From an uncultured Victivallales bacterium (GTDB lineage Bacteria; Verrucomicrobiota; Kiritimatiellia; UBA8416), in assembly GCA_964576795.1 (NCBI GenBank), contig CAZNWT010000001.1:56697-120696 (forward strand): 64,000 bases of DNA, given 5' to 3'. Shown here piece by piece: positions 24,951-33,952 of the stretch. How positions within the stretch are numbered: position 1 is the stretch's first letter; each line of letters starts with the position of its first letter. A program made the position numbers and the translations under genes. The notes under the pieces were generated by a model. It ran no database searches and was not told where the DNA came from. It was given only the letters and a program-made list of their open reading frames with translations.

Positions 24951-25577
24951 TCACTCCGCTGAGTGAAGCGCCGGCAGCTCCAAATCCTCGGGGCGATCAA
25001 CATCGCTTAGGACAGGAAGCTTTGCCACACACAATCCCTCTGCAGCCGCAGCCACTTCGGTGTCGTGGCAGACTCTGCTTTCACCCCATGCGATGCCAGT
25101 GAATAGAGCCGCACACGGCTGTTTGAGGCCAATGAGATAATAGCCGCCATCGGCCGCTGGACCCAACACCACATCGTGCGATGCAAGAGCGGCATTCGCT
25201 TGAGCAAGAATTGCCGGGCTAAGCTCAGGACAATCGGTTCCGATGATAAGAAAAGAAACGCCGGATTCACAATGCTGCTCGCAGGCGTGATGCAAGCGCT
25301 CCCCAAGATTGCCCTCGCATTGCAGTTCGAATGCGATGCCCCGCCCCAACCATGATTGCATGGATTTCGTCGTTGCACCTGTAAAGCAGACAGAGAGGTG
25401 AACATCTTGTTTCTGACAGAACTCACGCGCAACGGCAACCGTATGCTCCGCCATCTGTTTGTGTAATGCCGCCGCACCCTCGGCCCCCAAGGCGGGGATC
25501 AACCGCGTTTTAGATCTACCCGCTTCTGGCCAGCGCATAAACACCACAAGATGTACCTGTTGCGAAACGTTCATCAT
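24951..25577 (-). CDS. TIGR04282/DUF2064-type transferase (CofC-like nucleotidyltransferase fold; rSAM/selenodomain-associated transferase 1)
   Basis: PEAGRSKTRL, QCEGNLGERL, IGTDCP, LGPAADGGYYLIGL, DVDRPED. Confidence 0.88.
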   Translation of the reverse strand: MMNVSQQVHLVVFMRWPEAGRSKTRLIPALGAEGAAALHKQMAEHTVAVAREFCQKQDVHLSVCFTGATTKSMQSWLGRGIAFELQCEGNLGERLHHACEQHCESGVSFLIIGTDCPELSPAILAQANAALASHDVVLGPAADGGYYLIGLKQPCAALFTGIAWGESRVCHDTEVAAAAEGLCVAKLPVLSDVDRPEDLELPALHSAE

Positions 25578-25647
25578 CCTACTTTCGCGTGTTTCGTAGT
25601 TGAACTACGCTTTTCAGGATCCTGCGCAGAACCTCTTGCAAAACACC

Positions 25648-25714
25648 TGCGGGGCAAGGGCGCCCCACCTTCCATTTCTGTTTGTTTTTGGAGGTGGGAC
25701 GCCCTCGTCCTGCA
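25648..25714. repeat. Inverted REP-like dimer, family B
   Basis: TGCGGGGCAAGGGCGCCCCACCT..CC paired with GGAGGTGGGACGCCCTCGTCCTGCA; same family as 39017-39092. Confidence 0.7.
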
Positions 25715-25728
25715 CATCTGCCAGAGTT

Positions 25729-27759
25729 TTACAGCGACTTTCCATAGTAGCGTTCATACATCGCGTGCGTATCGACCTCGCCCCACAATCTCCTAAAAAG
25801 ATAGGTTCCGACAAGTCTAATGATAAAAACCGCACGAACAACCTTGTGCTTCTGCCACCCTCGCAAAGATACACGAGCCAAACCAAACAGATGCACCGTA
25901 CGCCCCACCATGAGCAACCGCAGACTAAGTTCAACATCTTCCATCAATGGAATAGCAGGAAAGAGATTGTGCTCCATGACGACCTGTCGTCGGAAAAACT
26001 GCACCTGATCCCCAAAAGATACCGACAAGCAGGTTGCCCTAATATCGTTCAGGACTTCAACAATGCGAATGCCACCATCACCCCCATCAAAGGAGCAACC
26101 CAGGCTGCCACCAACCACGCCGGGATTCGCTTGCAACATGGCCAGCATTCGGTCCCATGACTCTGGTGGAACAACGGTATCGGCATGGACAATCGCAACC
26201 ACATCCCCCGATGCTCGCTGTAAAGCCGCATAGATCTGCCCGCCGCGTCCAACATGCTCAAGTCCGGCAACCACCACCATTGCCCCCGCCTTTTCGGCCA
26301 ATGCCAGCGTATCATCACGGGAGCCTCCATCAGAAACGAGAACCTCAGTGACAAGAGGATTGGACAGTAAAATTTCGCAGCACGCTGAGATGCGCTGCGC
26401 TTCGTTGATGACGGGAACAAGCACCGAAAGGGTTTTTGCAGGTGTATTGGCAGATGCGTTTCTGAGTCGCCGAATGCCAACCGCCCCCTCCCACGCCAAC
26501 AGGCCCAAGACGGGTATCCACTCAATGGCAAAGGCCAATGACGAAATCTCCCAAGCGCCTGTGAGCGCAAACGTCCGACACACAGTGAAATAGGCCCCGA
26601 TAGTGAGTGTTGCCACCAACCAGCCCCATACGGGCAAAACAACGGCAAACGGCAAAATCCAGCTTAGGTACCAGTAGTGCACCGTGGGCGACAACAGCAG
26701 CAATGCGCCAAAAGCCAAGAGTATTCCCGGCAAGGGATCTTTGTTGCGACAGCGCATCCACAGCGGCATAAGGCGGATATAGGCAAAACTCAAAACCCCA
26801 AAAAACGCCACTTTTACGATGACAGTCGCCGCCGTCATGGATCCCAACACACCGCGCAGCACACCGTGAATGGGACCGTTGAATGCAAACTCCGAGCCAA
26901 ATGCCAATAGACAGTGAAAAAGTTGACGGGGATCCAGCAAAACAATCGGAAGATAGGGCACAACCGCTGCAGCAACAGAGATCCAAGCGTAGCGCCAATT
27001 CTCGCGATTGATAAGAAACGGAAGCGCGAACACGGCAACATACTTCACTTGAACCGCAAGGCCTGCCATCAGGAATGCCCATACCCACCGCTTTCGGGTA
27101 TGACAGAGAACCGCACCGGTGAGCAAGGCCGCCTGGATAGCATCAAAATGCCCTTCCCCCGCAAAACTAAAAAGGACTAGCGGATTAAATGCATAGAGGA
27201 AAGCCCAACGCAAGGGCAGATGCCGCGCCCGCAAGAGCTCAAACAGGAACAAAATGGCGACAAGATCAAAGAGGATGACAACCCACTTTATTGCCAAAGG
27301 ATGGTACCATATGCGAGAGATGCCACTGAACAGCCCAAGCATGAGCGGGGGATATGCCGCCGGCATATTGGGATGATTGACATAAGCATGAAAGGGATCA
27401 TCCTTCGCAAGGCCGGACAACAGCGGTGCATCCGGGGCATAGGCATAGGGGCTATAACCTGCTGCCAAAACACGCCCCTCCCACAAATAGCGGTTGATAT
27501 CATCCGAAGGTGGATACGGCAGCATTGCGAGCCGTGTCAATACCGAGACAACGAGGATGAAAAGGATTGTCTTTCGAGAAGACAGCGCGCGCGGAAACAG
27601 AAACAGCAACGCCACCGCAGCAACCCACAGGAAAGCGTACAACACTACAATACCAACAAGGTTGCTGACAGGGGTCATTCGCGAAACAATCGCACACGCC
27701 ACCAGCATGCCTATGGACAGCACGAGCAAGATCAGAATGCGCAGTCTATCAGCTCTCAT
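25729..27759 (-). CDS. Fusion of a GT-C fold (GT87/DUF2029-like) polytopic glycosyltransferase and a C-terminal TIGR04283-type GT2 domain
   Basis: N-part: SDDINRYLWEG, YSPY, YPP, FNPL, GHFD, many TMs. C-part: VLVPVINE, SDGGSRDDT, VHADT, FGDQ, PLMEDVE. Confidence 0.85.
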   Translation of the reverse strand: MRADRLRILILLVLSIGMLVACAIVSRMTPVSNLVGIVVLYAFLWVAAVALLFLFPRALSSRKTILFILVVSVLTRLAMLPYPPSDDINRYLWEGRVLAAGYSPYAYAPDAPLLSGLAKDDPFHAYVNHPNMPAAYPPLMLGLFSGISRIWYHPLAIKWVVILFDLVAILFLFELLRARHLPLRWAFLYAFNPLVLFSFAGEGHFDAIQAALLTGAVLCHTRKRWVWAFLMAGLAVQVKYVAVFALPFLINRENWRYAWISVAAAVVPYLPIVLLDPRQLFHCLLAFGSEFAFNGPIHGVLRGVLGSMTAATVIVKVAFFGVLSFAYIRLMPLWMRCRNKDPLPGILLAFGALLLLSPTVHYWYLSWILPFAVVLPVWGWLVATLTIGAYFTVCRTFALTGAWEISSLAFAIEWIPVLGLLAWEGAVGIRRLRNASANTPAKTLSVLVPVINEAQRISACCEILLSNPLVTEVLVSDGGSRDDTLALAEKAGAMVVVAGLEHVGRGGQIYAALQRASGDVVAIVHADTVVPPESWDRMLAMLQANPGVVGGSLGCSFDGGDGGIRIVEVLNDIRATCLSVSFGDQVQFFRRQVVMEHNLFPAIPLMEDVELSLRLLMVGRTVHLFGLARVSLRGWQKHKVVRAVFIIRLVGTYLFRRLWGEVDTHAMYERYYGKSL

Positions 27760-29258
27760 CTTCTTGCAGGAATAAATGTTTGGCAGACTGTGAGCATACC
27801 AATGAAAAGAAAACCGGCGGCATAGATCGCCAAGAAAGGACTTACGATCAGTTTTCCCGCTAGGAGATATTGAACCAAAGTCCAGCAGCTGTAGAGGCCA
27901 AGTGCAATTTCAACCACAGAGACCCACGGCAATCGAATCGCATATTGCTTAACGATACGATCCCCCCGCTTTGGCGTCCTTACAAACTCGCTCTCTTTTC
28001 TGAATATGGCTTCGATAATCGCACGAGTGTTAGAAACTGCCATTCCGATACCGACGACCATCAAGAACGGAAGCAGAAGCACGCGCCGTTTCCACTTTGT
28101 ATGGATGGCACGTTGACTCACCATATAGAGTGTGCTGGGTGCCACCACCGAAAAGCACAGCGGCAGCGAAAGCAGACAGAAGAGAACACTGGCAGAACGA
28201 AATTCGGGCATCATATGCAGAACAGGAAGGGCCAAGAGCACAAGGGTTAGCATCATCGGATGCACCAGGTACCCCCCCATATGAAATAGCGCCTGCAGCT
28301 TCTTAAAAGGGGATACCTTGGCTGCCATCAGTCTGGGAAATAGTTTGAGCAACGTCTGCACAGATCCCTTAGCCCAGCGGAACTGTTGCCCACGAAAAGC
28401 ATTGATATCTTCAGGGAGTTCAGCGGGCACAACGACATGGGGCAGGTAGAGCGTCTTCCAACCCGCAAATTGAACACGGTAAGAGAGATCCAGATCCTCC
28501 GTAAGCGTTTCCCACTGCCACCCCCCCCCCTCAACAATAGCAGACTTTCGCCAGAGGCCAGCTGTACCATTGAAGTTCATAAAAAGGTCATTCCAAGATC
28601 TGGCGATCTGCTCGATAATAAAGTGCCCATCAATCCCCACCGCCTGCGCACGTGTCAAAAGGGAGGCTCTACGGTTTAAATGACCCCAGCGTGTCTGGAC
28701 AAATCCAAGTGTCGCGTCAGATGCAAAATAATGGGCGGTATCCAATAGATAGTTCTCCTCGGGCACAAAATCAGCGTCAAAGACCGCAATCACATCACCC
28801 CTACACGCCTCCAAGCCCTTTTGAAGGGCTCCAGCCTTGAACCCAATCCGATCCACCCGATGCAGCACCTTGATGTCATGCCCCTGCTCCAGCAACTCTG
28901 CAGCAACCCGCTCGACCTCCTTCAGGGTTTCATCCGTTGAATCGTCCAACACCTGAATTTCATGCCGCCCTTTAGGATAGCGCATGTTGCAAGCCGCCCG
29001 CATAACGCGCTCCGACACGTTCCGTTCGTTGAAAATGGCGATCTGCGTGGTGACAACAGGAAGCGCATCTCCCATTACCAGCACATCATCAGCGGTGATC
29101 CTACCGTCATGGTGAGCCTGAACCTCCCGACGACGACGCATAAAGAGGATCAGCATGACATAACAATTCAAGCCGTATAACAGCAATCCCACGGTGGCAA
29201 TGCCGTAAAACGTGAGAACCATAGGCTTCAGTGCCATTTCCATCATATTGAGTTCCAT
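27756..29258 (-). CDS. Processive GT2, cellulose synthase-like (CslA-type) membrane glycosyltransferase
   Basis: VLDDS, GFKAGAL, FDADF, TEDLDLS and QFRWAKG (D,D,D,QxxRW), flanked by TM helices. Confidence 0.92.
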   Translation of the reverse strand: MELNMMEMALKPMVLTFYGIATVGLLLYGLNCYVMLILFMRRRREVQAHHDGRITADDVLVMGDALPVVTTQIAIFNERNVSERVMRAACNMRYPKGRHEIQVLDDSTDETLKEVERVAAELLEQGHDIKVLHRVDRIGFKAGALQKGLEACRGDVIAVFDADFVPEENYLLDTAHYFASDATLGFVQTRWGHLNRRASLLTRAQAVGIDGHFIIEQIARSWNDLFMNFNGTAGLWRKSAIVEGGGWQWETLTEDLDLSYRVQFAGWKTLYLPHVVVPAELPEDINAFRGQQFRWAKGSVQTLLKLFPRLMAAKVSPFKKLQALFHMGGYLVHPMMLTLVLLALPVLHMMPEFRSASVLFCLLSLPLCFSVVAPSTLYMVSQRAIHTKWKRRVLLLPFLMVVGIGMAVSNTRAIIEAIFRKESEFVRTPKRGDRIVKQYAIRLPWVSVVEIALGLYSCWTLVQYLLAGKLIVSPFLAIYAAGFLFIGMLTVCQTFIPARR

Positions 29259-29302: not shown

Positions 29303-30088
29303 TCAGTTCTGGGCATTCAAGAGCCAGTCATAACCCAGTGTTTTAATCGTAGGCGATGCGTTCGCTTCTGACAGAAACGAGACTGTCTCATCGGATGCGT
29401 AGAGCCGAATCAAGTCAACCACGGAGCGCTTTCCCCCATCAGTGAAGTCATCACCGAACCATTTGAAGATCTTGCTAACGCGCAAGATATACCTTTTGCG
29501 CCCCAGCAAGCCACTTGAGACTTCCGTCTGAATGTGCTTAGGCGACGCCATGAATAGCCGCGTGGCACGATCAAGTTGAGACCCAGCACTCTCCCCACAA
29601 TAGGCCCAGGGCTGCAAATCGGGGCACCCAATGCTGGCACACACAATCGCAAAGTGGATGCGTGGCTCACGAAACACCTTTCGTAGAATCTCATGCTCGA
29701 TGGCATCCAAATTGTAAAGCGTATCCCCAACGCGCCAGCGCTTCTGCTTCCACGGCGCATCAATATCCCGAATGCTCTTAAGCGGCATATTGTCCACAAT
29801 CAACTTCACCGTGAAGGCATTATACGCATTGATCCAGAATGCGAGCTGGTGGTCACGCGACATCCCCGCAGGAGCGGCTTCAGACAGTTTCTCCAAATAG
29901 TCATCAAGAGCCGCTGGCGCATTTTTGATCGCTTCATAGTCCACAAGCCCCTTGCTTACATGTGCTTTCAGAAGCGCATCCCAACCATCGTGGAAACCAC
30001 CCGATCCGGATTCACCCTCTTCGCCGATCGCAGTGCCGACAAATGACAATAGGCCCGCAGCAACCATCATGCTCCAAATCTGTTTCAT
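29303..30088 (-). CDS. Exported DUF547 family protein
   Basis: Signal peptide, LAFWINAYNA, IEHEILR, EPRIHFAIVCASIGCP, YDWLLN; GAGGA RBS before the ATG at 30088. Confidence 0.88.
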   Translation of the reverse strand: MKQIWSMMVAAGLLSFVGTAIGEEGESGSGGFHDGWDALLKAHVSKGLVDYEAIKNAPAALDDYLEKLSEAAPAGMSRDHQLAFWINAYNAFTVKLIVDNMPLKSIRDIDAPWKQKRWRVGDTLYNLDAIEHEILRKVFREPRIHFAIVCASIGCPDLQPWAYCGESAGSQLDRATRLFMASPKHIQTEVSSGLLGRKRYILRVSKIFKWFGDDFTDGGKRSVVDLIRLYASDETVSFLSEANASPTIKTLGYDWLLNAQN

Positions 30089-30160
30089 ACCTGATCCTCT
30101 TCTTCGTAGATCGGACATCTTGTCCAATCGAACCCTTGGCAGACGGACAAAATGTCCGTC

Positions 30161-32632
30161 CTACTTCAAGTCTTGCGATATTTCTGGATGCCGTTTGACT
30201 TCATCATCAAGGCGTTCGCGAAGCTTTTGTTTTGGAAGACCCGCCGACCAGCCGCGAGCCAACGGAATATACGCCTTCTTGTAAACCACGTTATCAGGAT
30301 CCGATTGCCCCACAGAACCAAACGTCAAAACCTGCATAGGGCAATTCACGACGCAAGCACTGCAACGCACACATTCAACATCGTTCATAGGAACCCCACG
30401 ACTGGCATACCCCATAACATCAATACCCATATGGCACACTTTCGTGCAGATATTGCACGAAATGCACCGCTTTTTGTTTGCCATGATGCGATAGCGCGAG
30501 AATCGAGAATAGATGTGCATTAACGCCGCAAGCGGGCAGCCATACCGACACCAGATGCGGCCACCATAAAAGAAATAGACGCCAAGCCCGAGGACTCCAG
30601 CAAACACAACATCAATCACCAACTTGTAACTATACCATAGCGAACTGGCCACGACCGGTATCGCACAATGGGGATCCACCTTGTGACATAGCTTGTAAGG
30701 CATATATAGCAAGCCGCAGCCAATGGCAGCCCATAAAACCACTTGTCCAATATTTTCCATTCGTTTGGCAAGCGGTCCGTGTGGCGATAGCGTACGATAC
30801 TCATCACCCAGCGTCTCAGCCATCGCCCCACAGGAACAGATCCAGCCGCAATACGCGCCCTTGCCCCAGAAATAGACCAGCAAAAACAGAATACCAAAGG
30901 TCTGCACGAAGGGAAACCACGTCCAAAAGGCACTATTGCCGAACTCGTTGATGTTTAGCGGCCAAAACAGAATGAATGCAAATGAGCTCCATTTACCCGA
31001 TGGAAAGAGCTGCTCACGCAATCCGTCAGACAGCGCTCCAGCAATGAAACGGTCATACAGGAAAAACGGGATCACAAAAAGAAAGAGCGCTTGTATAACA
31101 ATCAGCGTCATCGTCTGTGTAATGATGTACGGTGTTGGTGTACGCTGCATACGGTAAATACCAAAAATCAAGATCGTAAGCGTATAGAACAGGGAGTAAT
31201 AATACGTGGGTGCCTCAACCCAAGCTGCATCCTGCATGAGTTGGCTCTGCATGTAGACCTTGAAGAACGTAATCCCGACGCCAATGAAGTAGCCATACTT
31301 GATCGTCTTCCAGATGGAGCCAAAATAACGTTCTCGCTCCCTAGCCATATCCCCCAGCATCGCGCCACCCGAAACGAGGAACACTACCGATCCTAGCCAA
31401 CCCAACAGAAAATTCAGAGAACCATACCAGGTTTGCCCCGCAAGCGACCAAGTCAAGCCCGCCCGCCAAGGCGCGGTGAGATAAGCCCATATCGCTGAAA
31501 TGGGATTCTCGGCACCAGCAAAGACATTCACGGCTCGTCCGGACTTCCCAAAGTAGAGCATCGTAAAGAAACTCAGTAGCGCGATCAGGCCAACCCACCA
31601 GATGCGACTCCGTTCACCCTCCATTGCAATGCGGGAACGCTTGAAAAATGCCACCGGAATCTCGGAGCCAATCAAAGCATACACCACATCATTAGGGAGG
31701 GTCTGTTCGCCTTCGGTGGTGGCAAGCACGATCTCCGTTTCCCGAATCTCCTTTACCGTACTTTTAAAGAACGGGTGAATCCGACCCTTCCTCACCGCTT
31801 CGGTAAATGCTGCGAAATTTTGTTCTTTCGGGCGAGAAAACGCAGGCTTGCGATAGGAGAGCGTCACTTGATTGCCGGCATCCGCCAGTGCCACTGCAGC
31901 CTCAAGCGCACTATCCCCACCGCCCACAACCAAAATATTCTGATCCTGATGTTCCCCCGGATCAACCAATCGCGTGAAGACTTTTGGGAAGTCCTCCCCC
32001 GGCACATTCAATCGCCGCGCATTGCCACTCTTTCCAATCGCAACAATCACTCGTAGCGCAATCGTTTCCCCATCCGCAGTCGTCTTCACGGCAAAAGCCC
32101 CACTGCGACCCGATATGTGCTTAACCGTCTCCCCTTCGAGCATTGGGATGTCATGCCCCTGAATATCCTGCTTCAACTCCTCGAGAAGTGTCTCTTTTGA
32201 GCCGTCATTAAAGACAAGAGCAGACTGCATAGGAGGATCTACCGGCGTCACATAGATGGGCTTTCCCTTTGGAAAATTCTGGATGGTGTTAAACGGCTGT
32301 GCAGCCTCAATCAGGAGCACGTGATACCCCAACGCTTGCGCACACAACGCTGCGGCCATTCCTGCCGGGCCCGCACCGATAATCACAAGATCATAGACAC
32401 CCTCCTGGCGACGCTTGCTCTCATCACGAAATTTCGCATCGGCATGTATCGCCTCTATCACGCCATAACCCGACTCGGCTGCGAGCTTGATCAACGGCAC
32501 CCCGGTTAGGTCACCCACACAGTAGATGCCCGGCACAGACGAGGCGTACCCCGATAGCTCCGGATACCGATCCACAGTACCCGTAGGATTTCCCTTCTGA
32601 AGCCACGGAAAATAGAAAGAAGGAATTTTCAT
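30161..32632 (-). CDS. FAD/NAD(P)-dependent oxidoreductase (TrxR-like, permuted) fused to a NapH/RdxA-like membrane polyferredoxin
   Basis: N-terminal VPGIYCVGD, GAGPAG, GGGDSA, then about 9-10 TM segments, CGWICSCG, CRYGCP, and two CxxCxxCxxxC 4Fe-4S motifs. Confidence 0.85.
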   Translation of the reverse strand: MKIPSFYFPWLQKGNPTGTVDRYPELSGYASSVPGIYCVGDLTGVPLIKLAAESGYGVIEAIHADAKFRDESKRRQEGVYDLVIIGAGPAGMAAALCAQALGYHVLLIEAAQPFNTIQNFPKGKPIYVTPVDPPMQSALVFNDGSKETLLEELKQDIQGHDIPMLEGETVKHISGRSGAFAVKTTADGETIALRVIVAIGKSGNARRLNVPGEDFPKVFTRLVDPGEHQDQNILVVGGGDSALEAAVALADAGNQVTLSYRKPAFSRPKEQNFAAFTEAVRKGRIHPFFKSTVKEIRETEIVLATTEGEQTLPNDVVYALIGSEIPVAFFKRSRIAMEGERSRIWWVGLIALLSFFTMLYFGKSGRAVNVFAGAENPISAIWAYLTAPWRAGLTWSLAGQTWYGSLNFLLGWLGSVVFLVSGGAMLGDMARERERYFGSIWKTIKYGYFIGVGITFFKVYMQSQLMQDAAWVEAPTYYYSLFYTLTILIFGIYRMQRTPTPYIITQTMTLIVIQALFLFVIPFFLYDRFIAGALSDGLREQLFPSGKWSSFAFILFWPLNINEFGNSAFWTWFPFVQTFGILFLLVYFWGKGAYCGWICSCGAMAETLGDEYRTLSPHGPLAKRMENIGQVVLWAAIGCGLLYMPYKLCHKVDPHCAIPVVASSLWYSYKLVIDVVFAGVLGLGVYFFYGGRIWCRYGCPLAALMHIYSRFSRYRIMANKKRCISCNICTKVCHMGIDVMGYASRGVPMNDVECVRCSACVVNCPMQVLTFGSVGQSDPDNVVYKKAYIPLARGWSAGLPKQKLRERLDDEVKRHPEISQDLK

Positions 32633-32831: not shown

Positions 32832-33080
32832 ATGACAAGACAAGATATCGTAAATCAACTACGCGAAACCATGCGGACATCCTCACCAGACCCCATCGAT
32901 TGGGACATCGTCACAGAAGAAACTACCATTGGAACTCTGGGGTTTGATTCACTCTCGATTCTGGACTTGATTTATGACGTACAGCAGGCTTTCGGTATTG
33001 ATTTCGAAGCCGAGGAACTGGTCAACATCAATACTGTAGGTGAACTTGCCGACTTCCTTGAGGAAACGCTCAAGGCATGA
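32832..33080 (+). CDS. Acyl carrier protein
   Basis: LGFDSLSILDL phosphopantetheine motif, acidic 82-aa protein. Confidence 0.9.
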   Translation: MTRQDIVNQLRETMRTSSPDPIDWDIVTEETTIGTLGFDSLSILDLIYDVQQAFGIDFEAEELVNINTVGELADFLEETLKA

Positions 33081-33952
33081 AGAAACTGCGGCATCTCGTT
33101 GAGTACGCTGCCGTCCGCACGTTTCTAATGCTTGTCGATGCGCTCTCCCTTCGGGCTGCCGAACTGTTGGCCTCCGGAATTGCGGATATCTGGTTTTCAG
33201 CAGCGTCTCGACGGCGCGGTATCACCTGCGACAACGTCAGACGCAGCGGCATCGCAACTGATGAGATGAAGGTGCGGCGTATTGCCAAGGCGTCCTTTAG
33301 ACACTTCGCTTGCCTGATCATCGACTCTCTCAAATCCGACCGCTACTTGACGCCAGAAACGTGGCAAGAGCACATAAGTCTGGATGTGCCGCCAGAGACC
33401 CTGGCGCTCCTTAAACAACCCGATCAGGGGCTGATTCTCATTTCCGGACACCTTGGGAACTGGGAAATAGCAGCCCAGGCTCTCTCTTTTATCAAACCCG
33501 TCGTTGGTATCACACGGGACATGAACAACCCCTACACGAATGCCCTCATGAAGAAACGCAAACCCCGCAATGCGTTCACGCTTACGCCCAAACACAGTGC
33601 CAATATGGGGCGGCTCCTCAAGACGCTGAGGTCCGGAAATATTCTAGCGCTTCTGACCGACCAGCACGCACAACACGGCATGATGGTTGATTTCTTTGGC
33701 ATCTCCGCCAGCACACACACTTCACATGCCATGTTGCATTTGATTACAAAAACGCCCATGTGTTTTGGGTACTGCGTGAAGACAGGCCCAATGCAATTCA
33801 TGCTAAAGGCATCCCTCCCCATCACCGTCCCCCGAACAGGCAAACGCGACGAAGACGTAAGAGGCATTCTTGAACAACTCTCTCGCGAACTCGAAACAGC
33901 CATCCGGGCCTACCCCGAACAATACCTCTGGGCTCACCGACGCTGGCGGTAA
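33077..33952 (+). CDS. Lipid A late acyltransferase, LpxL/HtrB family
   Basis: GHLGNWE, LTDQH, VDFFG, YPEQYLWAHRRWR; ATGA overlap with the ACP gene. Confidence 0.9.
   Translation: MKKLRHLVEYAAVRTFLMLVDALSLRAAELLASGIADIWFSAASRRRGITCDNVRRSGIATDEMKVRRIAKASFRHFACLIIDSLKSDRYLTPETWQEHISLDVPPETLALLKQPDQGLILISGHLGNWEIAAQALSFIKPVVGITRDMNNPYTNALMKKRKPRNAFTLTPKHSANMGRLLKTLRSGNILALLTDQHAQHGMMVDFFGISASTHTSHAMLHLITKTPMCFGYCVKTGPMQFMLKASLPITVPRTGKRDEDVRGILEQLSRELETAIRAYPEQYLWAHRRWR

Follow-up and report, generated by a model that had tools for sequence, protein, structure and literature searches.

A membrane-bound NAD(P)H flavoprotein with iron-sulfur motifs is genetically coupled to an exported DUF547 protein in an uncultured Victivallales bacterium and in other bacterial phyla

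Analysis of a 64,000-nt stretch of DNA from an uncultured Victivallales bacterium (contig CAZNWT010000001.1, assembly GCA_964576795.1; hereafter the window) revealed two neighboring genes, the first encoding an oxidoreductase designated OXR and the second an exported protein of the DUF547 family. The genetic coupling between both genes was strong, and the data support OXR and the exported DUF547 protein as a real, conserved functional pair. As judged from their sequences, the two proteins would form an unstudied unit, present in six or more bacterial phyla, that connects the cytoplasm with the cell envelope; a search of one literature library found no publication on a bacterial DUF547 system or on the OXR family. 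With somewhat less than even confidence, we favor a role of OXR as a reductase that charges a membrane carrier for DUF547, serving an envelope glycolipid or glycan pathway. Coordinates are positions within the window, and all genes of the operon lie on the minus strand:

30161..32632, minus strand: OXR gene, 823 aa, with an NAD(P)H/FAD module, an eight-helix membrane domain and a domain with two [4Fe-4S] motifs in one polypeptide
29303..30088, minus strand: DUF547 gene, with ATG at 30088 behind an AAGAGGA Shine-Dalgarno sequence (the mechanical open reading frame, ORF, is 29303-30127 with a TTG start)

Results

The OXR and DUF547 genes are coupled across phyla

A scan of one genome per species yielded 199 OXR relatives, from which 80 loci were kept, 63 of them assessable for the presence of DUF547. 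These loci came from Fibrobacterota, Ignavibacteriota, anammox Planctomycetota, Lentisphaerota, Acidobacteriota, Spirochaetota, a gammaproteobacterium and others. DUF547 was the commonest neighbor of OXR, lying at a distance of up to 10 kb in 39 of the 63 assessable loci, and the two genes were at most 400 bp apart in members of Planctomycetota, Acidobacteriota, Lentisphaerota, Gammaproteobacteria, Spirochaetota and Fibrobacterota. A bare two-gene pair was frequent. In 26 genomes with OXR no DUF547 gene was found nearby, and 18 of these carried one elsewhere.

The co-occurrence of both genes, a check proposed along with the original prediction on this DNA, was determined in 201 good genomes drawn evenly from the phylum of the window, and it bore out the association. 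DUF547 was present in 24 genomes and the OXR fusion in 10; DUF547 was found in 9 of the 10 OXR-positive genomes (adjacent in 7) vs 15 of the 191 OXR-negative ones. The corresponding Fisher test gave a p of about 1e-8, a value that is overstated because related genomes are not independent. The existence of 15 DUF547-positive genomes without OXR indicates that DUF547 does not require OXR. The genome of the window itself contains one DUF547 gene.

OXR combines a permuted flavin module, a membrane domain and two iron-sulfur motifs

The fusion of an NAD(P)H/FAD module and Fe-S clusters to a NapH-like membrane domain was correctly predicted from the DNA alone, both in coordinates and in domain content. 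The following parts were distinguished:

32399..32632, minus strand: OXR residues 1-78, N-terminal segment with the FAD-binding 'GD' motif (G40 D41 invariant)
31613..32398, minus strand: OXR residues 79-340, FAD (GAGPAG) and NAD(P)H (GGGDSA) Rossmann modules, closest to YpdA/Bdr and to ferredoxin-NADP reductases (FNR) of the thioredoxin reductase (TrxR) type
30581..31606, minus strand: OXR residues 343-684, predicted membrane region of eight helices, with a NapH/NosR-type module in the final four
30830..30850, minus strand: Cx3CxC motif (C595/C599/C601), invariant, in the predicted cytoplasmic loop after helix 6
30533..30550, minus strand: Cx3CP motif (C695/C699/P700), invariant, predicted cytoplasmic, after helix 8
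30320..30484, minus strand: two CxxCxxCxxxC(P) [4Fe-4S] motifs within residues 717-771, cytoplasmic

In the flavin module, a Pfam match to Pyr_redox_3 covered residues 83-337 (E 5e-35), and the Pyr_redox_3/2 matches together spanned residues 80-340. The best match of residues 80-345 in the PDB was 7a7b (YpdA/Bdr, E 1.7e-43), with TrxR-type FNR also among the matches (7a76, 3ab1 and 2zbw listed). YpdA and TrxR are defined by an active-site Cys and a CxxC motif, respectively. No conserved Cys was found in the OXR flavin module (residues 1-340) across 81 homologs, where the loop reads GAGPAGMAAA, and for this reason the flavin part is better read as a module that passes electrons from NAD(P)H to a carrier than as a disulfide reductase. 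In TrxR-type enzymes the FAD 'GD' segment sits at the C-terminus. In OXR this segment is N-terminal and invariant, within a stretch whose invariant residues in the family alignment are W10 L11 Q12 ... G40 D41, indicating a circular permutation of the flavin domain; the conserved permutation would leave the C-terminal end of this domain free to enter the membrane.

The Fer4_5 family (PF12801) matched OXR in two stretches with 34.9 bits against a cut-off of 22, identifying the NapH-like module, and 4Fe-4S dicluster models matched residues 717-771, where the motifs CxxCxxCxxxC (723-733) and CxxCxxCxxxCP (754-765) are both invariant, as in NapH/NosR-like proteins. The Fer4_18 domain (PF13746) was present in three OXR homologs. 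All curated equivalog cut-offs were missed by OXR: the scores were 141 bits vs 339.9 for YpdA (TIGR04018, E 3e-41), 45.5 bits vs 213 for NapH/MauN (TIGR02163, E 6e-12, residues 582-771 only), 35.9 bits vs 1000 for NosR/NirI (NF046105) and 75.6 bits vs 343 for thioredoxin reductase (TIGR01292). Among the 25 Pfam families listed for OXR, DsbD_TM (PF02683) did not appear, and neither did an FMN-binding family, the listing being without coverage of residues 340-575. When compared alone with solved structures, the membrane part had no homolog beyond the ferredoxin motifs. The family comprises at least 3,437 clusters at 90% identity (E < 1e-40), with generic names such as 'NAD(P)-binding domain-containing protein', '4Fe-4S binding protein', 'thioredoxin reductase/polyferredoxin' or 'NosR/NirI'.

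The AlphaFold2 model of OXR (pLDDT 80) showed eight membrane helices, with a poorly modeled Fe-S domain. Since the NAD(P)H domain is necessarily cytoplasmic, an eight-helix arrangement places both Cys motifs and the Fe-S domain in the cytoplasm as well, a location with which the charges of the loops are consistent. Every conserved Cys and cofactor site of OXR is predicted to be cytoplasmic. The two Cys-x3-Cys-type motifs noted initially are both present and invariant, the first being Cx3CxC rather than Cx3CP; together with the two ferredoxin motifs, C595/C599/C601 and C695/C699 are the only invariant Cys positions across the 81 homologs. The cytoplasmic Cys loops reached conservation values of 0.87-0.89, in comparison with 0.34-0.36 for three of the four periplasmic loops; the one conserved periplasmic loop (residues 534-567, FP..W..LxWPL) had a value of 0.62.

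The exported DUF547 protein carries a family-wide Cys pair

The product of the second gene matched DUF547 (PF04784) with 94.8 bits against a cut-off of 27 and contains the C-x4-C-P motif of the family. The claim that the gene following OXR encodes an exported DUF547 protein with a CASIGCP sequence was thus upheld, with the leader of this protein called from hydropathy alone:

30023..30088, minus strand: signal-peptide-like leader MKQIWSMMVAAGLLSFVGTAIG, from the ATG at 30088
29621..29641, minus strand: CASIGCP, the invariant C-x4-C-P motif found throughout the family

Among 40 DUF547 homologs next to OXR relatives, 36 had a clearly hydrophobic or lipobox leader, several of them with a lipobox; in the remaining four the ORF call started upstream of the leader or was cut at the end of the locus. 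Conservation of the Cys pair, on which the original prediction depended, was confirmed: the motif C-[AGS]-[AS]-x-[GS]-C-P was present in 40/40 of these homologs, and C-x4-C-P was kept in 147 of the best 150 family representatives. In addition, residues N87, Y89, N90, E131, H145, W210, W255 and N258 are invariant, a pattern more suggestive of an active or binding site than of a bare disulfide. The AlphaFold2 model of the protein was confident (pLDDT 91), with the Cys pair in a loop. No significant match of this model was found in the PDB (best Foldseek E 0.4; best VIA-align Z 5.6, with a root-mean-square deviation of 3.4 over 88 residues), and a search of PDB sequences with the DUF547 profile gave no solved relative (best E 0.16). 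The motif is C-x4-C, and no thioredoxin-fold protein was among the structural matches listed, none of which was significant.

DUF547 is a large family, with 14,188 representative clusters at 50% identity. The great majority of its long forms are fusions to VTT, and the other partners are glycosyltransferases (GTs) of the TIGR04283-type GT2 kind, processive GT2 synthases, TPR plus GT-C domains, nucleoside hydrolases, ArsS-like radical-SAM proteins and AhpC/TSA redoxins; no fusion to Pyr_redox_3 or Fer4_5 was seen among the long DUF547 forms. The TIGR04283-type GT2-DUF547 fusions have neither leader nor membrane helix and would for this reason be cytoplasmic, as are the ArsS-like radical-SAM fusions. 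Plant DUF547 has been described in fusion with glutaredoxin (PMC13621322), and both this fusion and those to redoxins fit a redox-active Cys pair in DUF547. On a separate note, six proteins are leader-bearing fusions of an inosine-uridine nucleoside hydrolase to DUF547; these could be an adenine-removing step after ArsS or methylthioadenosine chemistry, apparently extracytoplasmic.

These observations bear on whether the adjacency of OXR and DUF547 merely reflects shared inheritance or hitch-hiking in an operon, with the Cys pair acting as a structural disulfide. The location of the pair in a loop of the model would allow it, and the genomes compared are related and not independent, with many loci coming from two phyla. 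However, adjacency was observed in six named phyla with differing surrounding genes, and fusions of DUF547 to redoxins and to flavoproteins exist. Cytoplasmic fusions that have no leader retain the Cys pair too, in a compartment where a structural disulfide would be unexpected. This explanation was already disfavored on these grounds and is, in our view, highly improbable.

A second NAD(P)H flavoprotein is joined to DUF547 through VTT

Of 16 DUF547 loci from genomes of the window's phylum that lack OXR, 8 encoded a class-I pyridine-nucleotide disulfide reductase. This reductase matches NF004991 (781 bits against a cut-off of 620), with a redox-active CLNVGC motif and without the C-terminal Cys pair of MerA. 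In 6 of the 8 loci its gene lies beside that of a TVP38/VTT membrane protein, and VTT is beside or close to DUF547. Such a reductase was present in only 1 of the 80 OXR loci, and VTT was found in 7 of the 80 OXR loci vs 7 of the 16 OXR-negative DUF547 loci. Furthermore, at least 15 proteins of 960-1080 aa contain, in this order, VTT, Pyr_redox_2 plus Pyr_redox_dim, an extra hydrophobic helix (at about 725-745) and DUF547. In this arrangement the flavoprotein faces one side of the membrane and DUF547 the other, with both in the same chain. This triple fusion is the strongest evidence for a functional unit of NAD(P)H flavoprotein, membrane part and exported DUF547.

In the VTT-reductase-DUF547 triads as in the OXR-DUF547 pair, an NAD(P)H flavoprotein of the cytoplasm is combined with a polytopic membrane part and with an exported DUF547, and triads and pair occur in the same neighborhoods. 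OXR would then be a non-orthologous counterpart of the flavoprotein and membrane parts of the VTT-reductase unit. On the other hand, the flavoprotein of the triads is GR/Lpd-like and has the CLNVGC redox disulfide, whereas that of OXR is a cysteine-less FNR-like module accompanied by Fe-S clusters, which the triads lack, and the membrane domains of both are unrelated. Homology of the OXR membrane domain to VTT was considered and rejected, with an hhalign probability of 0.6%. One further protein fuses a reductase of the NF004991 type to DUF2064 (TIGR04282-like).

Altogether, the co-occurrence, the adjacency in six phyla and the fusions uphold the part of the original prediction that connects an NAD(P)H module to the exported DUF547, although not its conduit through the Cys motifs.

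The pair belongs to a glycolipid-type operon

One small hairpin was identified between OXR and DUF547, and three further genes downstream of DUF547:

30142..30160, minus strand: small hairpin with a 7-bp stem and a 5-nt loop, directly 3' of the OXR stop codon, with no T-run
27756..29258, minus strand: processive membrane GT2 synthase (CelA/PgaC-like)
25729..27759, minus strand: fusion of GT87 (GT-C) with a TIGR04283-like GT2; the start overlaps the upstream stop by 4 nt
24951..25577, minus strand: TIGR04282/DUF2064 protein, 213 bits against a family cut-off of 134

The 72 nt between OXR and DUF547 contain the hairpin, which does not look like a terminator because it lacks a T-run, and the good AAGAGGA Shine-Dalgarno sequence; the gap between DUF547 and the GT2 synthase is 44 nt. 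No terminator-like sites were found between the first four genes of the operon, from OXR to GT87-GT2. The TIGR04283-like domain of the GT87 fusion scored 135 bits against a cut-off of 182. As read from these genes, OXR and DUF547 are part of a TIGR04282/TIGR04283 glycolipid operon of the arsenosugar/methylthioxylose (MTX) type without ArsS, a context that the original prediction did not include. The only terminator-like hairpin of the operon (25646-25668, minus strand) lies in the 151-nt gap between the GT87-GT2 and TIGR04282 genes, ahead of the latter, which for this reason may be partly uncoupled from the rest. Elsewhere, a leader-bearing DUF547 is fused ahead of a processive GT2 synthase of the type that follows DUF547 in the window. 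Given that such fusions occur in other organisms, DUF547 may act on the periplasmic side of the GT2 synthase. Upstream of OXR lies a divergent pair of genes for an acyl carrier protein and an LpxL-like protein (32832-33952), which was discarded as a member of the conserved unit, no homolog being found in any of the 80 OXR loci (E < 1e-5).

The neighborhoods of OXR in other genomes include TIGR04282, TIGR04283-like and GT-C genes as well as ArsM-like methyltransferases, and ArsS (TIGR04167, above cut-off) together with the AhpD-like TIGR04169 was present in about 20 OXR loci of Ignavibacteriota and Fibrobacterota. In 12 of 81 loci, some of them without DUF547, OXR had MsrAB genes with signal- or lipoprotein-type leaders as a divergent partner, and DUF547 may thus not be the only exported thiol enzyme that OXR serves. 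Leader-bearing AhpC/TSA-type redoxin and rhodanese genes also adjoin OXR. In many loci of the Ignavibacteriota type, genes for G6PD, 6PGL, 6PGD and PGI are found after OXR or at the end of its operon, which suggests a supply of NADPH. CcdA and DsbD were essentially absent from OXR loci, with a thioredoxin (Trx)-like gene upstream in two of them; one OXR-negative DUF547 locus had Trx and CcdA. In three Scalindua loci of anammox genomes, a B12-binding radical-SAM gene directly follows the OXR-DUF547 pair.

In the genome of the window, which is 92% complete, no DUF3641 match indicative of ArsS (TIGR04167) was found, and no ArsM scored above the family cut-off. The best approach to the latter was an ArsM-like domain of 208 bits against a cut-off of 263 on another contig of the same genome (C124:10813-11430). 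The open frame of 953 aa that contains this domain extends to the edge of the locus and may encode a fused radical-SAM/methyltransferase.

In a third-ranked explanation, OXR is a membrane-anchored reductase of the NADPH:ferredoxin type for cytoplasmic partners or for the quinone pool, and DUF547 is one more enzyme of the pathway, not connected directly to OXR by redox chemistry. The radical-SAM protein ArsS, the AhpD-like CPYC protein or the tailoring of lipid-linked sugars would be the candidate partners. An FNR-like flavin module without redox Cys would suit such a function, as would the sharing of the OXR operon by ArsS and the AhpD-like protein in the loci mentioned above, the view of NapH as a quinol dehydrogenase (PMC5928378) and the 24 of 63 assessable OXR loci that have no DUF547 within 10 kb. 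On the contrary, OXR-DUF547 pairs without ArsS, GT or AhpD exist in Scalindua, Lentisphaerales, Arenicellales and Spirochaetota, and ArsS was not found in the genome of the window. In addition, the triple fusions link a flavoprotein specifically to DUF547, and the co-occurrence (9/10 vs 15/191) is likewise specific to this family. We regard this explanation as improbable.

Discussion

A membrane carrier as the tentative link between OXR and DUF547

In the favored reading, OXR would be an NAD(P)H-driven, membrane-embedded iron-sulfur reductase that supplies reductant to the neighboring exported DUF547. Electrons would pass from NAD(P)H to FAD, then to the two [4Fe-4S] clusters and to a cytoplasm-facing, Cys-rich site on the NapH/NosR-type module. 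Rather than a Cys relay, a carrier of diffusible or lipidic nature would make the crossing after its reduction on the cytoplasmic side; it could be quinol, as proposed for NapH-type modules, or the lipid-linked or small-molecule intermediate of the pathway. Reducing equivalents would end on DUF547 or on its thiophilic substrate. DUF547 would act at the outer face by means of its invariant C-x4-C-P pair, and OXR and DUF547 would serve an arsenosugar/methylthioxylose-type pathway together with the TIGR04282 protein, the TIGR04283-like GT2-GT-C fusion and the processive GT2 synthase. A membrane carrier is favored because the Cys motifs are predicted to be cytoplasmic and a periplasmic FMN domain is lacking; the sequence does not show by what means anything passes through the membrane. 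A broader proposal would make OXR and DUF547 a third route from NAD(P)H to extracytoplasmic dithiols through a membrane carrier, independent of DsbD/CcdA and of the heme-based MsrQ/NOX, with DUF547 as a thiol enzyme of new fold acting on arseno- or thio-sugar envelope lipids and VTT-reductase-DUF547 as an independent solution. In this extended form the proposal is doubtful.

Several observations weigh against a transfer of reductant from OXR to DUF547. No conserved Cys or His was found within the membrane or on the periplasmic side of OXR across the 81 homologs, and both Cys motifs are cytoplasmic in the eight-helix model, so that the trans-membrane conduit through these motifs envisaged originally is not supported. 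Three of the four periplasmic loops are poorly conserved, and OXR has no extracytosolic FMN domain, unlike NosR and PceC. No OXR-DUF547 fusion was present among the best 120 OXR homologs (452-1441 aa). The closest OXR relative among the scanned loci (76% identity) has unrelated neighbors and no DUF547 in its contig or metagenome-assembled genome; this difference in context and the absence of OXR from the same-genus and same-family genomes searched make the OXR-DUF547 module look mobile or easily lost. With regard to DUF547, its fold yields no catalytic clue because nothing solved matches it, and its commonest fusion partners are transporters and GTs, not redox proteins. Since it often occurs without OXR and in leaderless fusions to GT2 or radical-SAM proteins, its Cys pair need not be a periplasmic electron sink. 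Finally, the genome of the window carries DsbD-like and CcdA-like genes, whose products could reduce periplasmic thiols, and for this reason the independence from DsbD/CcdA that had been proposed cannot be claimed.

The second-ranked explanation, which we consider unlikely, is that a substrate and not electrons crosses the membrane, following the logic of MerP-MerT-MerA or of CcoG. The Cys pair of DUF547 would capture As(III), methylarsenite, selenium species or a small disulfide outside, a membrane protein would carry the species in, and OXR or the class-I reductase would reduce it at the cytoplasmic Cys/Fe-S site, feeding arsenic methylation and arsenosugar-type glycolipids. All the chemistry of OXR is predicted to be cytoplasmic and its Cys loops are the best conserved (0.87-0.89), in line with the precedent of CcoG as a cytoplasm-facing metal reductase (PMC7558416, PMC8267372). 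Recurrence of ArsS, TIGR04169 and ArsM-like genes in OXR and DUF547 neighborhoods also agrees with inward handling, as do the fusions of DUF547 to VTT transporters (most long forms), ArsS-like radical-SAM proteins, nucleoside hydrolases and GT2, and the occurrence of C-x4-C-P in both cytoplasmic and exported forms, as for a ligand-binding site. However, neither ArsS nor an ArsM above cut-off was found in the 92% complete genome of the window, and the OXR membrane domain showed no homology to a transporter (0.6% in the hhalign comparison with VTT). Moreover, the alternative reductase lacks the C-terminal Cys pair of MerA and resembles a disulfide reductase, and the fusions to redoxin and glutaredoxin suit a redox role better than pure binding.

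Relation to known systems

The reading of OXR as a reductase that charges a membrane carrier can be compared with several described systems. OXR has in common with NapH, NosR and RdhC (PceC) a membrane module of four helices in which two conserved Cys motifs directly follow helices, with NapH and NosR two cytoplasmic [4Fe-4S] motifs after the membrane module, and with NapH-like modules in general a genetic tie to an extracytoplasmic partner. It differs from them in having four more helices and, at the N-terminus, an NAD(P)H/FAD module that would be its own electron donor, in a first motif of the Cx3CxC kind, and in the partner, which is DUF547 instead of a nitrate, N2O or organohalide reductase. 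It has been proposed that NapH-like modules connect redox proteins of the periplasm with quinol or with Fe-S clusters of the cytoplasm (PMC5928378, PMC8238504), and a periplasmic FMN domain accompanies most of the NapH-like systems proposed to carry electrons outward (PMC8238504). The Cys motifs of NapH-type proteins are cytoplasmic and without assigned function (PMC5928378).

Compared by description only, CcoG (FixG) differs from OXR in the lack of a flavin module, in a periplasmic Ig-like domain and in its copper/cbb3 oxidase context. The Fer4_5 module is presumably common to CcoG and OXR. CcoG is a membrane-bound polyferredoxin with two [4Fe-4S] clusters whose physiological electron donor is unknown (PMC7558416, PMC8267372).

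With YpdA/Bdr and TrxR-type FNR, OXR shares the fold of two Rossmann modules binding FAD and NAD(P)H; unlike them, it is membrane-fused, carries its 'GD' motif N-terminally and has neither the YpdA active-site Cys nor the TrxR CxxC. In the DsbD/CcdA pathway, electrons flow from NADPH through TrxR and Trx to DsbD and on to periplasmic thiol proteins. The likeness to OXR lies in the use of cytoplasmic NADPH, which would keep an exported Cys-pair protein reduced, and in the periplasmic Msr and redoxin genes near OXR; the difference is that OXR has no DsbD_TM homology, no membrane-embedded Cys and no thioredoxin fold, and uses FAD and Fe-S instead.

The operon resembles arsenosugar and MTX systems in its TIGR04282, TIGR04283-like GT2 and GT-C genes, with related loci adding ArsS, TIGR04169 and ArsM-like genes, whereas no ArsS was identified in the genome of the window. 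In mycobacterial MTX capping, MtxS (Rv0539) and a GT-C work with a lipid-linked 5-substituted pentose donor derived from methylthioadenosine (PMC11127046, PMC12088412). The literature search found neither OXR nor DUF547 in the described arsenosugar or MTX schemes.

Implications

DUF547 is a very large family of bacteria and, according to the literature, of plants, with no known function and with a predicted fold that has no solved match. The conserved OXR-DUF547 unit gives a concrete and testable handle on two uncharacterized families, and it bears on the role of the Cys motifs and cytoplasmic Fe-S clusters in NapH/NosR-type proteins, as well as on which unassigned genes complete the bacterial pathways for arsenosugars, arsenolipids and methylthio-sugars. 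A further handle is the finding that the union of DUF547 with an NAD(P)H flavoprotein and a membrane domain arose twice in evolution. Should reducing power indeed arrive at DUF547, the unit would add a new route to the few that power redox chemistry outside the cytoplasm.

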